From Promethearchaeota archaeon (GTDB lineage Archaea; Asgardarchaeota; Lokiarchaeia; Sigyniarchaeales; SOKP01): 64,000 bases of DNA. Shown in pieces: positions 3,101 to 21,955 of the stretch (positions are counted from its first letter, which is position 1; each line of letters opens with the position of its first letter). The notes beneath the pieces were generated by a model that was not told the DNA's origin, did not search any database, and was given only the letters and a program-made list of their open reading frames with translations. The stretch lies in contig JBHLLT010000001.1 in assembly GCA_048938855.1 (NCBI GenBank), positions 1 through 64,000 on the forward strand. Reading direction: 5' to 3'. The position numbers and the translations under genes are program-made.

Positions 3101-3637
3101 TTAATACCAATCTATAAAATCGTCTATCGGACGTCTTTTTCTTTCTTTTTCACTAGCTTTTTCACGAGCTTCATCTACAACTCCTATGGCTATAACTCCC
3201 ATTAATTCGAATTTATCATTTGGAAATTTAAATATTTCATTTACCTTGTCTTTTCGACCAATAATCTCACCAATCCAAGTAGCACCAAGTTCTTCGTTTG
3301 CATTGACGCCTAATAAAATATTTTCCATAAATGCCCCAATTGCTTGGATATCTTTTACTCTTTCATATCCTCTTTCAAGATCTAAGAAAACTACTAGATT
3401 AACATATGCGTCTTCTATGATACCTCCATATTTAGTGAGTTCCGATAGCATTCTTTTAACTGTGGGATGAATTACTATACAAACACGCCATGGTTGACTA
3501 TTATTTCCAGAAGGTGCCCATTGAGCACATTCTAATATACTTAAAATAATTTCCTTATTAATTTTTTGATAAATAAAGTTTCTAGAACTTTTCCTCTTTT
3601 TAATAAACTCTATAAAATCATTTTTAATAGGATCCAT
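3101..3637 (-). CDS. Nitroreductase family protein
   Basis: RKSSRNF, APSGNNSQPW, ENILLG...LGATWIG. Confidence 0.9.
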   Translation of the reverse strand: MDPIKNDFIEFIKKRKSSRNFIYQKINKEIILSILECAQWAPSGNNSQPWRVCIVIHPTVKRMLSELTKYGGIIEDAYVNLVVFLDLERGYERVKDIQAIGAFMENILLGVNANEELGATWIGEIIGRKDKVNEIFKFPNDKFELMGVIAIGVVDEAREKASEKERKRRPIDDFIDWY

Positions 3638-7702: not shown

Positions 7703-8440
7703 ATTTTAACAGAAAAACAAAAAGAGAGATTTACAAGACAAATTATTTCTCCTTTCATTGGAGAAAAAGGACAAGAAGTGATATCGAAAATTAAAGTTCT
7801 ACAAATTGGAGTTGGAGGTTTAGGTTCACCTTTTGCTTTATATCTTACAGCAGCAGGTATAAATGAATTAACGATTATTGATAATGATACCTTAGAAATA
7901 TCTAATTTACAAAGACAAATTCTTTACAATGAAACTCACATCGGTAAGGAAAAAGCAAAATCAGCTAAAGATGTATTGCTTAAGCTTAATTCAGATATTA
8001 AAGTTAATGCTTATAAGGATTATATTGATGAAAATTCTATAAAAAAATATCTAAAAGAAACTCAATATGATTTCATTGTGGATTGTTCTGACAATTTCCA
8101 GACTAAATTTTTAGTTAATAAAATAGCAGTAGAGAACAATTTAAATTGTGTTATTGCAGGTATCAAAGATTTCTATGGACAAATTATAACAATCAAACCT
8201 AAAGAAAGTGCTTGCTATCAATGCATTTTTTCAGTGATGGATTCTCCCCCTATTGAAGGCCCTTTACCAGTAATAGGCGTTACTCCTGGAATTCTAGGAA
8301 CTTTGGAAGCTTTAGAAGTGATAAAAACAGCTCTAGGACTGCCTAACTTGGAAAATAAACTTTTAATGGTTAATTTAATAGATATGAGTTTTAATATAAT
8401 TGATATCGTAAAGAACGAAAATTGCATATGCTCATCATGA
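7703..8440 (+). CDS. ThiF/MoeB/HesA E1-like adenylyltransferase (UbaA-like); probable ATT start at 7703
   Basis: GVGGLGS, SNLQRQ, DCSDNF, ACYQC. The frame upstream of the track start (7778) encodes the conserved N-terminal motif ERFTRQII...GEKGQE. The only plausible start after the in-frame TGA at 7694 is ATT 7703, behind GAGAAGTGA. Confidence 0.85.
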   Translation: MLTEKQKERFTRQIISPFIGEKGQEVISKIKVLQIGVGGLGSPFALYLTAAGINELTIIDNDTLEISNLQRQILYNETHIGKEKAKSAKDVLLKLNSDIKVNAYKDYIDENSIKKYLKETQYDFIVDCSDNFQTKFLVNKIAVENNLNCVIAGIKDFYGQIITIKPKESACYQCIFSVMDSPPIEGPLPVIGVTPGILGTLEALEVIKTALGLPNLENKLLMVNLIDMSFNIIDIVKNENCICSS

Positions 8441-14922: not shown

Positions 14923-15123
14923 ATGGAAGATCCAAATATTTTGAATAGAATCAAAAAAATTGAAAGTAGACTAGATAGCATAGAAGAGCGCATTACACAT
15001 TTAGAACATAGAATAGGGCGTTTTCCATCACGTCCATTCCCAAAACCAGAACCTATACACCCTCCAGGATCCCCAGAACCACCTAAACCACCAGGACCCC
15101 CTCCAGAACCCTTTAGGTTTTAA
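14923..15123 (+). CDS. Small coiled-coil protein with a proline-rich tail
   Basis: Heptad pattern RIKKIESRLDSIEERITHLE followed by PFPKPEPIHPPGSPEPPKPPGPPPEPF. Confidence 0.7.
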   Translation: MEDPNILNRIKKIESRLDSIEERITHLEHRIGRFPSRPFPKPEPIHPPGSPEPPKPPGPPPEPFRF

Positions 15124-15280
15124 TAAATGCCTAAATAATCATTGAAGAGAAAAGCAAAAAAAGACCTATCACTTCTAAACCATAGTTCGAGATCTTGAAC
15201 GATAATCCTTATCTTTCCTTTCTAATAATTATTATGTAATATAAATCAGTTTATGAAAAATTAATGGGGTGTGATAAAAA

Positions 15281-15535
15281 ATTACCCAATATAGGTTTAG
15301 GCTAACGGGAGTCCCTCCAGATCAAGCTATAAAATTAATTGAATTAGATCCAAATAATTCAATTGCAGAAATTAAAAAAACCGTCCAACGTGAGTATAAG
15401 TTAAATCCAATTTTAGCTATACAATTCATTTTTAAAGGGAAAGTATTACCTGATCAATTAAAGTTTGCAAAAATTGGTATTCATCCAAAAAAAGATGTAA
15501 TTACTGTAATGGCTACTCAAGCTGGCGGAATTTAA
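15281..15535 (+). CDS. Ubiquitin-like protein (84 aa, ATT start), C-terminus ...QAGG-I
   Basis: Absent from the ORF track. Translation (M)TQYRFRLTGVPPDQAIKLIELDPNNSIAEIKKTVQREYKLNPILAIQFIFKGKVLPDQLKFAKIGIHPKKDVITVMATQAGGI*. In-frame TAA at 15275; SD-like GGGGTGTGA at 15266-15274. Confidence 0.88.
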   Translation: MTQYRFRLTGVPPDQAIKLIELDPNNSIAEIKKTVQREYKLNPILAIQFIFKGKVLPDQLKFAKIGIHPKKDVITVMATQAGGI

Positions 15536-19698: not shown

Positions 19699-20307
19699 AT
19701 GACTGAAGATGTAGAAGAAAAAACAGAGAAAGTTCAATTAGATGGGTTAATTGAAAAAGATAAAGTTATAATTTCAAATAGTAAAGCTATTGAAGAATTT
19801 TACAATACGTCTTATATAGGTACTATAGAGTTAGATGGAGATGAGAGAGAATTCTTGACTTTAAATGCTATAGAAGTATTACTTCTATGTGAAAGAAATA
19901 GAATACTTCTTTGGGAAGATAATGATAGAAACAAAAATTTATATGATTTTGAAGGATTGCTAACTTATTTCACTCAATTTGATTCACGTCTTTGGCAAAA
20001 GTATGTAATATATATGGATCTAAGAAAAAGAGGATATATTGTTCGTACAGGTTATGGAGATGGGATAGATTTTCGAGTTTATAAAAGGGGTGCCGATTTT
20101 GAAAAAGATTCAGCGAAATTTTTAATATTTCCCGTATTTGAAGGAAATCCTATTGAACTAAGGGATTTAGATAAGATGTCCAGAGTTGCTATGAGTTCTC
20201 GAAAAGACTTAATTGTTGCCACCGTAGATAGATTGAGCAAACCGATTTATTATAGTGTTAAAAAGTTTCAAATTTTAAATAAGACGGAGGATATCGATGA
20301 AACATAA
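19699..20307 (+). CDS. endA: tRNA-intron endonuclease family subunit (possibly non-catalytic)
   Basis: YMDLRKRGYIVRTG, DFRVY, RVA.S.RK; the catalytic His position appears to be Ser. Confidence 0.8.
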   Translation: MTEDVEEKTEKVQLDGLIEKDKVIISNSKAIEEFYNTSYIGTIELDGDEREFLTLNAIEVLLLCERNRILLWEDNDRNKNLYDFEGLLTYFTQFDSRLWQKYVIYMDLRKRGYIVRTGYGDGIDFRVYKRGADFEKDSAKFLIFPVFEGNPIELRDLDKMSRVAMSSRKDLIVATVDRLSKPIYYSVKKFQILNKTEDIDET

Positions 20308-21955
20308 ATTTTCTTGTGATACATCGATAATCTTCGATGGTCAAATTCTTAATTTAATTGAAAATGGAGATTTAGGAGAAAATCCTGAAATTTTTATTTC
20401 CAATGTTGTTGTCGCTGAGGTCGAATATAGAACCAATATTCAAAAAGAAATTGGATTCTTTGGTCTAAATGTTTTAAAAGAATTAAGAAAGCTTCATGAA
20501 GACAGTGTTATTACACTCCATGTTATAGGGAAAAGACCTACGAGAGAAGAAATAAAAATGGCACCTGGTGGAGAGTTAGATGCTTTAATTAGAGAATCGG
20601 CTTTAGAAAACGGAGCAACTTTAATTACATCGGATCGCATTCAAGGGGATGTTGGAGTTTTTGAAGGTCTGGATGTATTATTTACTTGGGAAAAAAAGGT
20701 AGAAAGAGAAAAACAACCACTTTCTTTAAAGTTATTAGAATTTTTTGATGAGACAACTATGAGTGTTCATCTTAAAAGAAATCTACCTCCTTATGCTAAG
20801 AAAGGTGCTCCTGGTAGTTGGCATCTTGAGAAAGTTAGTGAAAATCCTTTAATCCCGCAAATGATTGAGGATATTGCTCTCGAAATTATAGAAAATGTGA
20901 GAGCTGATCAACACTCATTTATAGAAATTGAAAGAGAAGGCGCGGTTGTAGCACAATTACGTGAGTTTAGAATAGTTATAACTCGACCACCCTTTTCTAA
21001 TGATGTAGAAATAACCGCAGTTAGACCTTTAGTGAGTTTAAGCTTATCAGATTATTCAATAGATTCTAGATTACAGAGGAGACTGGAAAAAGCAGAAGGA
21101 ATACTTGTTGCTGGGCCACCGGGAGCAGGAAAATCCACATTTTCAGCAGCATTAGCTAATTATTATTTAAGCCAAGATAAAGTAGTTAAAACACTTGAAA
21201 GTGTAAGAGATTTACAAGTAGAACCCGAAATAACACAATATACTAAATTAGAAGGAAGTTTAGAGAATTCAGCAGATATATTATTACTTGTAAGACCTGA
21301 TTTTACTATTTTTGATGAAGTTAGAACCACTAAAGATTTTGAAGTTTATTCAGATTTTAGATTATCTGGTGTTGGTATGGTAGGTGTAGTTCACTCTTCA
21401 TCTGCTATAGATGCAATTCAAAGATTTATTGGTCGTATTGAGCTTGGAATGCTACCTTCAATAATAGATACAATTATTTTCATTGAGGGTGGAGATATAT
21501 CAAACGTATTGATAATTAAAATGACAGTTAAAGTTCCATCAGGATTAAGGGATAGGGATTTAGCAAGACCTGTAGTAGAAGTAAGAAATTATAAAACAAG
21601 ACAATTAGAATATGAGATTTATTCATTTGGTCAAGACATTGTAATCAATCCTATAAAATCTGGAAAATTAAGTGAAAAACCTACACAGTATAGAGAATTG
21701 ACTAAATATGGAAGGGCAAAACCAAAAAAAGAAAAAATTAATCTCGAAATAGAAGTAATGAGAGACAAAATTATTTTAAAAGCAGCTCCTGAATATGCTA
21801 GTCAAAATATAGTAATTTTTTCCAATAATAACGAAATCTTTACCGGGAGTCTTTCTCGAAAAAGTGAGATTAATCTGTCTTTGTCTAATAAGGAAGGAAG
21901 AAAAATTCTGAAAGAGTTTGATAGGAATAGAGATATATATGCAAGAATAAAATAA
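20297..21955 (+). CDS. PIN-domain + VirB11-type ATPase (archaeal PINA family)
   Basis: PIN motifs CDTS, ELDALIRE, TSDRIQ; Walker A GPPGAGKST; LLVRPDFTIFDEVR; GVGMVGVVH. Confidence 0.92.
   Translation: MKHKFSCDTSIIFDGQILNLIENGDLGENPEIFISNVVVAEVEYRTNIQKEIGFFGLNVLKELRKLHEDSVITLHVIGKRPTREEIKMAPGGELDALIRESALENGATLITSDRIQGDVGVFEGLDVLFTWEKKVEREKQPLSLKLLEFFDETTMSVHLKRNLPPYAKKGAPGSWHLEKVSENPLIPQMIEDIALEIIENVRADQHSFIEIEREGAVVAQLREFRIVITRPPFSNDVEITAVRPLVSLSLSDYSIDSRLQRRLEKAEGILVAGPPGAGKSTFSAALANYYLSQDKVVKTLESVRDLQVEPEITQYTKLEGSLENSADILLLVRPDFTIFDEVRTTKDFEVYSDFRLSGVGMVGVVHSSSAIDAIQRFIGRIELGMLPSIIDTIIFIEGGDISNVLIIKMTVKVPSGLRDRDLARPVVEVRNYKTRQLEYEIYSFGQDIVINPIKSGKLSEKPTQYRELTKYGRAKPKKEKINLEIEVMRDKIILKAAPEYASQNIVIFSNNNEIFTGSLSRKSEINLSLSNKEGRKILKEFDRNRDIYARIK

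Follow-up and report, generated by a model that had tools for sequence, protein, structure and literature searches.

Results

A ubiquitin gene overlooked for want of a standard start

The window, a stretch of 64,000 nucleotides, belongs to a Lokiarchaeial genome that is 97% complete and is designated G000 (C numbers are its contigs; G, L and P numbers are other genomes, loci and proteins). On its forward strand, an open reading frame made of ATT, 83 further codons and TAA occupies positions 15281-15535 and encodes a product of 84 aa, which ends with QAGG followed by a single isoleucine (Table 1). The only in-frame ATG, GTG or TTG is the codon of Met77, so gene callers that use the common starts of translation table 11 skip this frame; NCBI table 11 also gives ATT, ATC and ATA as alternative starts. 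The original prediction, made from the sequence alone, had proposed an ORF overlooked here for lack of a standard start, with SIAEIKKTV, QFIFKGKVLPD and the QAGG end as ubiquitin-like motifs. Both the frame and the motifs are present as quoted, and related genomes, which it expected to be under-annotated, do show mis-annotation, the database N-termini of relatives being extended or truncated.

The 84-aa product matches the ubiquitin family PF00240 of Pfam with 36.8 bits (cut-off 25.4, E = 3.4e-9). An AlphaFold2 model, calculated from an alignment of 42 sequences, has a pLDDT of 92.4 and a pTM of 0.81, with the order of elements of the beta-grasp fold. Its best Foldseek structures are ubiquitin, SUMO and the Caldiarchaeum ubiquitin (TM about 0.75), and against 1UBQ the TM values are 0.76/0.83. 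The proposed assignment to a eukaryote-type ubiquitin-like protein (Ubl) is thus borne out by profile and fold. No match to ThiS, MoaD or Urm1 was detected in Pfam at E<=1 or among the top 50 Foldseek matches of the model. When we compared the gene with four orthologues of the same genus, 30-37 codons differed synonymously and none non-synonymously, the opposite of the decay that had been named as fatal to the prediction, and G000 has one close copy. The gene is real, intact and under strong purifying selection.

Table 1. Coordinates of the ubiquitin gene, of its elements and of the related features considered in the text
Feature	Position	Strand	Remarks
Shine-Dalgarno-like element GGGGTGTGA	15266..15274	+	core GTGA at -10 relative to the start codon; based on sequence and genome-wide GTGA position
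In-frame TAA	15275..15277	+	two codons upstream; rules out a canonical start further 5'
ATT (AUU) initiation codon, inferred	15281..15283	+	start-type codons at the same aligned position in orthologues
Lokiarchaeial ubiquitin gene	15281..15535	+	84 aa, beta-grasp, stand-alone, intron-free copy
Position of intron site A (codon Thr75)	15503..15504	+	empty in the window; occupied in relatives including G084 and G101 of the same genus
Gly82-Gly83 diglycine	15524..15529	+	invariant in the 42-sequence alignment
Ile84, one-residue C-terminal extension	15530..15532	+	differs among orthologues or is missing
tRNA splicing endonuclease EndA gene	19699..20307	+	PF01974 and PF02778 above cut-off; context only
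Candidate E1/E2 pair	G000 C34:205531-207126 and 208964-209524		no Ubl gene alongside
L7Ae	G000 C34:340142 (L196/L197); others L198-L212		ATT/ATA in genus
Site A inserts	L170:5440-5484, L171:1646-1690, L172:4526-4570(-), L050:5214-5258, L055:331-375, L059:5214-5259, L061:2992-3036, L063:360-410
Three further insert sites in ubiquitin genes	L173 about 3380-3420; L032 about 2185-2220; L058 about 505-540

Identity with a published protein and distribution

Lokiarch_37670 of Lokiarchaeum GC14_75 is listed as 'Ub' in Supplementary Data 1 of Hatano et al. 2022 (PMC9192718). Over positions 2-84, 81 of 83 residues are identical between this protein and that of the window (S27A, E30D; compared by eye), and both carry an isoleucine after QAGG; Lokiarch_37670, however, starts with Met and has the five-residue tail ISIIH, whereas the window copy has an ATT start and a tail of one residue. 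Judged by this identity, the window protein is not new but the ubiquitin previously described for Lokiarchaeia. Yeast two-hybrid contacts of Lokiarchaeota ubiquitin with UEV proteins were reported in the same study (PMC9192718). In the literature that we searched, conjugation assays of the Loki protein did not turn up, the data being from yeast two-hybrid assays and from the localisation in human cells of an MK-D1 ubiquitin, a possible orthologue.

The homologues carry the names Lokiarchaeota or Promethearchaeota. Matches were obtained in 36 of 41 relatives and in 137 of 161 genomes of the class, mostly as one close copy each, these tallies taking in some partial and paralogous matches. In five well-assembled genomes without a match, no fragmented ubiquitin copy was found with this query either. 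The pro-ubiquitin of Caldiarchaeum subterraneum (PDB 6FNN) has the beta-grasp fold in common with the window protein (TM 0.75), but the two are only about 18% identical. The pro-ubiquitins of C. subterraneum and Helarchaeia are encoded in E1-E2-E3 operons and have tails of 9 or 4 residues, whereas the window gene stands alone and most of its relatives have a tail of 0-1 residues. With the precursors of eukaryotic ubiquitin, NEDD8 and SUMO, the family shares the fold, the GG and a variable, disposable extension; it differs from eukaryotic ubiquitin by an identity of about 20%, its single unit and, in the window gene, the non-AUG start. The protein cannot be assigned to any one of ubiquitin, NEDD8 and SUMO in particular. 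We also noticed longer proteins (L040:776-2449 and P0143-P0147), in which this Ubl domain occurs internally, next to an E2 domain or fused to it; this set includes Hodarchaeales proteins at 45-48% identity.

Translation probably starts at AUU, as in many genes of the lineage

We examined the codon aligned with the ATT in 112 distinct orthologous loci. It is ATG in 51, ATT in 39, ACG in 7, TTG in 5, ATA in 4, ATC in 1 and GTG in 1, bearing in mind that one locus has ATT directly followed by ATG, that four others have ATG one codon off and that the genomes are related and therefore not independent. All the non-ATG codons are one base away from ATG. A GTGA-type element precedes 35 of the 39 ATT-started loci versus 25 of the 51 ATG-started ones, and the genome-wide mode of the GTGA position before ATG in G000, -10, is also its position ahead of the ubiquitin ATT. 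This near-cognate series and the modal spacing argue strongly, in agreement with the non-AUG start first proposed, for translation beginning at the AUU at 15281. ATT is retained on the ubiquitin gene in most of the genus. In one clade (L142-L144, L149-L151 and L153), the ubiquitin start is ACG behind GATGTGA.

Such starts are frequent in G000. Behind GGTGA at the canonical spacing (n = 121), we counted 28 ATG, 23 ATT, 21 ATA and 12 TTG, ATT and ATA together exceeding ATG, with 8.0 ATT and 6.3 ATA expected among the same sites; a shifted control of this count gave no ATT excess in G000. The start of L7Ae is ATT or ATA in all 16 genomes of the genus and ATG in the 9 genomes of other families. 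The habit is common to unrelated genes, including dehydrogenases, transporters, L7Ae and a ThiF/MoeB-family gene of the window (7703-8440, +), which gains an N-terminal Pfam match with an ATT start at 7703. By eye, eS26 in C49 also looks ATT-started. Because ATT and ATA are routine genome-wide and on L7Ae, AUU is not specific to ubiquitin; such starts would be a trait of the lineage rather than a ubiquitin-specific switch. A strong GTGA Shine-Dalgarno would position the ribosome, and initiation at AUU would most likely follow from a tolerance of the lineage for near-cognate starts. We found no report of this ATT/ATA habit in Asgard archaea in the literature searched.

The infC gene of Escherichia coli is AUU-initiated. 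The ubiquitin gene resembles it by its AUU behind a Shine-Dalgarno, but the infC-type start is a rare exception, whereas AUU is frequent in the Lokiarchaeal lineage. In G000, the frame of aIF1 (C31:6347-6670, L169) has no ATG, GTG or TTG before codon 88 and a Shine-Dalgarno-preceded ATT near its beginning, and a non-AUG-started aIF1 might exert an autoregulatory feedback similar to that of IF3. A loss of aIF1 as the cause of the relaxed starts was ruled out, aIF1 being present in G000.

The residue after the diglycine is variable and probably disposable

Of the 121 homologues, 26 terminate at GG, 57 carry a single additional residue, 31 carry a longer tail and 7 have no clear GG; the tail is thus missing in 26 of the 114 GG-bearing proteins, counted like the start codons in related, non-independent genomes. 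The single residue may be I, V, A, F, N, K, R, C, S, Y, Q or L, and proteins otherwise identical to the window ubiquitin have I, V, A, F, FL, Y or no residue at all behind the GG. A propeptide kept in presence and sequence is not what we observed. Since this residue is variable and is absent in about a quarter of the relatives, it is, on this comparison, a disposable leaving group and not a conserved switch.

In C. subterraneum, Rpn11 removes a ubiquitin tail of nine residues, and ubiquitin that keeps this tail is not activated (PMC5654768); a Helarchaeial pro-ubiquitin has a four-residue tail (bioRxiv 10.1101/2023.07.25.550441). By analogy with the former, Ile84 of the window copy would have to be removed before activation, which agrees with the trimming originally proposed for exposure of the GG. 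A JAMM/Rpn11-type protease would take it off constitutively, as deubiquitinases trim the spare residue of eukaryotic polyubiquitin. With cleavage after GG being routine, the tail would be free to drift between none, one residue, a short peptide and even a whole roadblock domain. A few fusions of ubiquitin, GG and a roadblock/LC7 domain are found, at L102 and L117 and among the proteins P0122, P0123, P0125, P0126 and P0141, as such cleavage would permit; the counterpart of the roadblock part is a separate gene in G000 (70% identity). Eukaryotic UBA52 and UBA80 are N-terminal fusions of ubiquitin to ribosomal proteins, which these orthologues resemble by the GG-linked N-terminal position of ubiquitin ahead of another domain.

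Conjugation machinery and gene neighbourhood

G000 encodes three E1/E2 sets (on C34, C49 and C58), at least two RING-like proteins and seven proteins with JAB matches, five of which have an intact HxHx7SxxD; an E2 with HPN...C is also found. With a diglycine near the C-terminus, and E1, E2 and a processing protease encoded in the genome, the protein can be placed by analogy among the type I (conjugated) Ubls, for which thioester transfer and isopeptide conjugation are predicted. No E1, E2, E3 or JAMM gene adjoins the ubiquitin gene in the window. The E1 and E2 genes of C34, beside which there is no Ubl gene, lie 190 kb from it. In G033 and G037, the ubiquitin orthologue has an E1 and an E2 gene for neighbours, and these two match best, within G000, those of C34 (63% for E1 and 67% for E2); from the synteny in these two genomes, the C34 proteins are most likely the cognate pair of the window ubiquitin. 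The exposed GG would be activated by E1, passed to E2, likely those of C34, and conjugated to lysines, and the tag could be read by UEV/ESCRT-I proteins.

Three neighbours of the ubiquitin gene are conserved: a winged-helix gene, present at 89 of 155 loci, an LRR gene and a small gene that looks like a longin. In the window, a 66-aa mini-protein made of a coiled coil and polyproline (14923-15123, +) is encoded on the same strand, 157 nt 5' of the ubiquitin gene. Elsewhere in G000, a JAMM-E2-E1 operon with ubiquitin-domain proteins (C49:126764-132131 and C66:49007-49339) looks like a second Ubl system, whose Ubls have acidic N-terminal tails and single-Gly ends (STAG, SVAG). A further JAMM-E1-E2-like cluster (C58:14951-22429) contains an E2-like protein without a match to the HPN...C pattern, and two small Ubl-like ORFs lie nearby, one of them ending with VIGG.

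Competing explanations

The original prediction had attributed to both the start codon and the cap a control of this particular gene. In its developed form, the gene would belong to an AUU regulon tuned by aIF1, and removal of the cap would gate the pool of free ubiquitin. The late first ATG of the aIF1 frame, at codon 88 behind the ATT, fits this idea, the bacterial IF3 gene itself having a non-AUG start, as does the retention of ATT on the ubiquitin gene in most of the genus. Tails are also present in 37 of 44 ATT/ATA/ATC-started loci versus 40 of 68 others, a comparison that is phylogenetically confounded. However, both the start codon and the tail change between closely related genomes that encode an otherwise identical protein, unrelated genes have the same ATT/ATA habit, roughly half of the orthologous loci start with ATG and about a quarter of the homologues need no trimming. 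Neither element thus behaves as the gene-specific control that had been claimed, the start not being of the infC kind, and we consider the regulatory interpretation unlikely.

Still less probable is a role as a sulfur carrier of the SAMP/Urm1 type, or as a Ubl adaptor that is not conjugated, with activation by a MoeB/ThiF protein such as that encoded at 7703-8440. ThiF-family genes do lie less than 8 kb away in the window and also beside the orthologue in L059, but the window type is near the orthologue in 1 of 155 loci, an E2 adjoins the orthologue in G037, and Pfam and Foldseek group the protein with ubiquitin/SUMO and not with ThiS/MoaD. Moreover, several separate small ORFs of G000, GG-ended, look like MoaD/ThiS by eye. 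As for an ATT copy that is decayed and untranslated through loss of its start, or an assembly error, the lack of a canonical start is what would suggest it. But 39 distinct loci have ATT at this codon, 30-37 synonymous changes are accompanied by no amino-acid change and a 97%-complete genome contains no other copy; conservation practically excludes such a reading. We estimate at about 0.8 the probability of the joint reading in which the window gene encodes the principal, highly conserved ubiquitin of Lokiarchaeia, with a lineage-wide AUU start, a disposable tail that is trimmed and the C34 E1/E2 as likely partners.

Bulge-helix-bulge inserts in the ubiquitin genes of relatives

The window copy has no intron; inserts with a bulge-helix-bulge (BHB) structure were found in orthologues elsewhere only. 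In fourteen homologue clusters, 10-12 additional residues precede TVMATQ, and at the DNA level these site A inserts are hairpins of 30-36 nt within codon Thr75. In seven of the eight distinct inserts examined, two 3-nt bulges flank a perfect central helix of 4 bp, and the canonical BHB cuts restore the exact frame. The insert of L059 is 31 nt long and causes a frameshift, and those of G084 and G101, from the genus of the window, contain TAG in the only copy detected, while a comparison of their exons with the window gene gives 43 and 40 synonymous and 0 and 1 non-synonymous codon changes, respectively. In six aligned inserts, 87% of cells pair versus 39-54% in slid controls, a figure favoured by the derivation of the structure from the same sequences, and 8 of 17 pairs have two-sided, compensatory changes.

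Three further sites were found: at Lys61 (31 nt, canonical BHB, G067), after Lys70 (30 nt with TAA, relaxed BHB, G027) and near Gln80 (29 nt, relaxed BHB, L058 and probably P0014). Site D is canonical, and sites B and C are relaxed (3/4 central helix). Among the matches listed, 5 of 161 class genomes have ubiquitin introns. Because an essential-looking gene under purifying selection carries stop-bearing or frameshifting BHB inserts, with covariation and frame-restoring cuts, the ubiquitin transcripts of these relatives are probably spliced by EndA and a ligase. EndA is the class of enzyme that would cut BHB introns.

A de novo scan of G000 for BHB introns, blind to in-frame inserts without a stop, gave 27 candidates versus 32 and 31 in frame-shifted controls, without excess. 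The intron sequences had no meaningful match in G000. In a small sample, 650 kb of loci from relatives searched by tblastn with the proteins of G000, 30-nt inserts were seen in the ubiquitin gene only, but a hot spot specific to this gene is unlikely. L190 was rejected as an intron, being a partial 3' duplication, and L182 and L184 were rejected as chance pattern matches.

Discussion

The ubiquitin protein is a rediscovery, and the finding as first framed, a known gene in a mis-annotated variant, is a modest one. Its practical side is that, in a large Lokiarchaeal genus, ubiquitin, L7Ae, aIF1 and many other genes are lost or given a wrong start by standard gene calling, and such errors bias the counts of eukaryotic signature proteins. 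Beyond this, we lean towards the view that the supply of ubiquitin in Lokiarchaeia involves the RNA level, through near-cognate starts, possibly tuned by aIF1, and, in several lineages, through mRNAs spliced by EndA, with four independent gains. The intron part of this view concerns relatives, including some of this genus, and not the window copy. If it is true, spliced protein-coding mRNAs occur in close archaeal relatives of eukaryotes. Confirmation of near-cognate initiation and of EndA-spliced ubiquitin mRNAs, for which the evidence so far is comparative, would give the finding biological weight. The gene is short and nearly invariant, and two genomes of the same genus have a stop-containing insert in the only copy detected, which makes it a clean substrate for tests.

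A passage of PMC7714728 cites crenarchaeal cbf5 as the one earlier case of a BHB intron in an mRNA, and that paper added an intron in a Haloferax 5' UTR. The inserts of the ubiquitin orthologues resemble the cbf5 intron by a 4-bp helix that is flanked by two 3-nt bulges, and by predicted cuts that restore the frame; unlike cbf5, they occupy four separate sites of one short gene in Asgard hosts, and their splicing is predicted. In the literature searched, cbf5 was the one archaeal precedent in a coding sequence, and for Asgard archaea we found tRNA introns only.

The EndA gene of the window adjoins a PIN-domain ATPase gene (19699-21955, +), and this block also lies near the ubiquitin orthologue in L059; EndA is near the orthologue in L131 and L170 as well. 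ARAGORN called introns in 16 of 24 tRNAs of G000, which fits the intron-rich tRNAs of Asgard archaea, although some of these calls look spurious.
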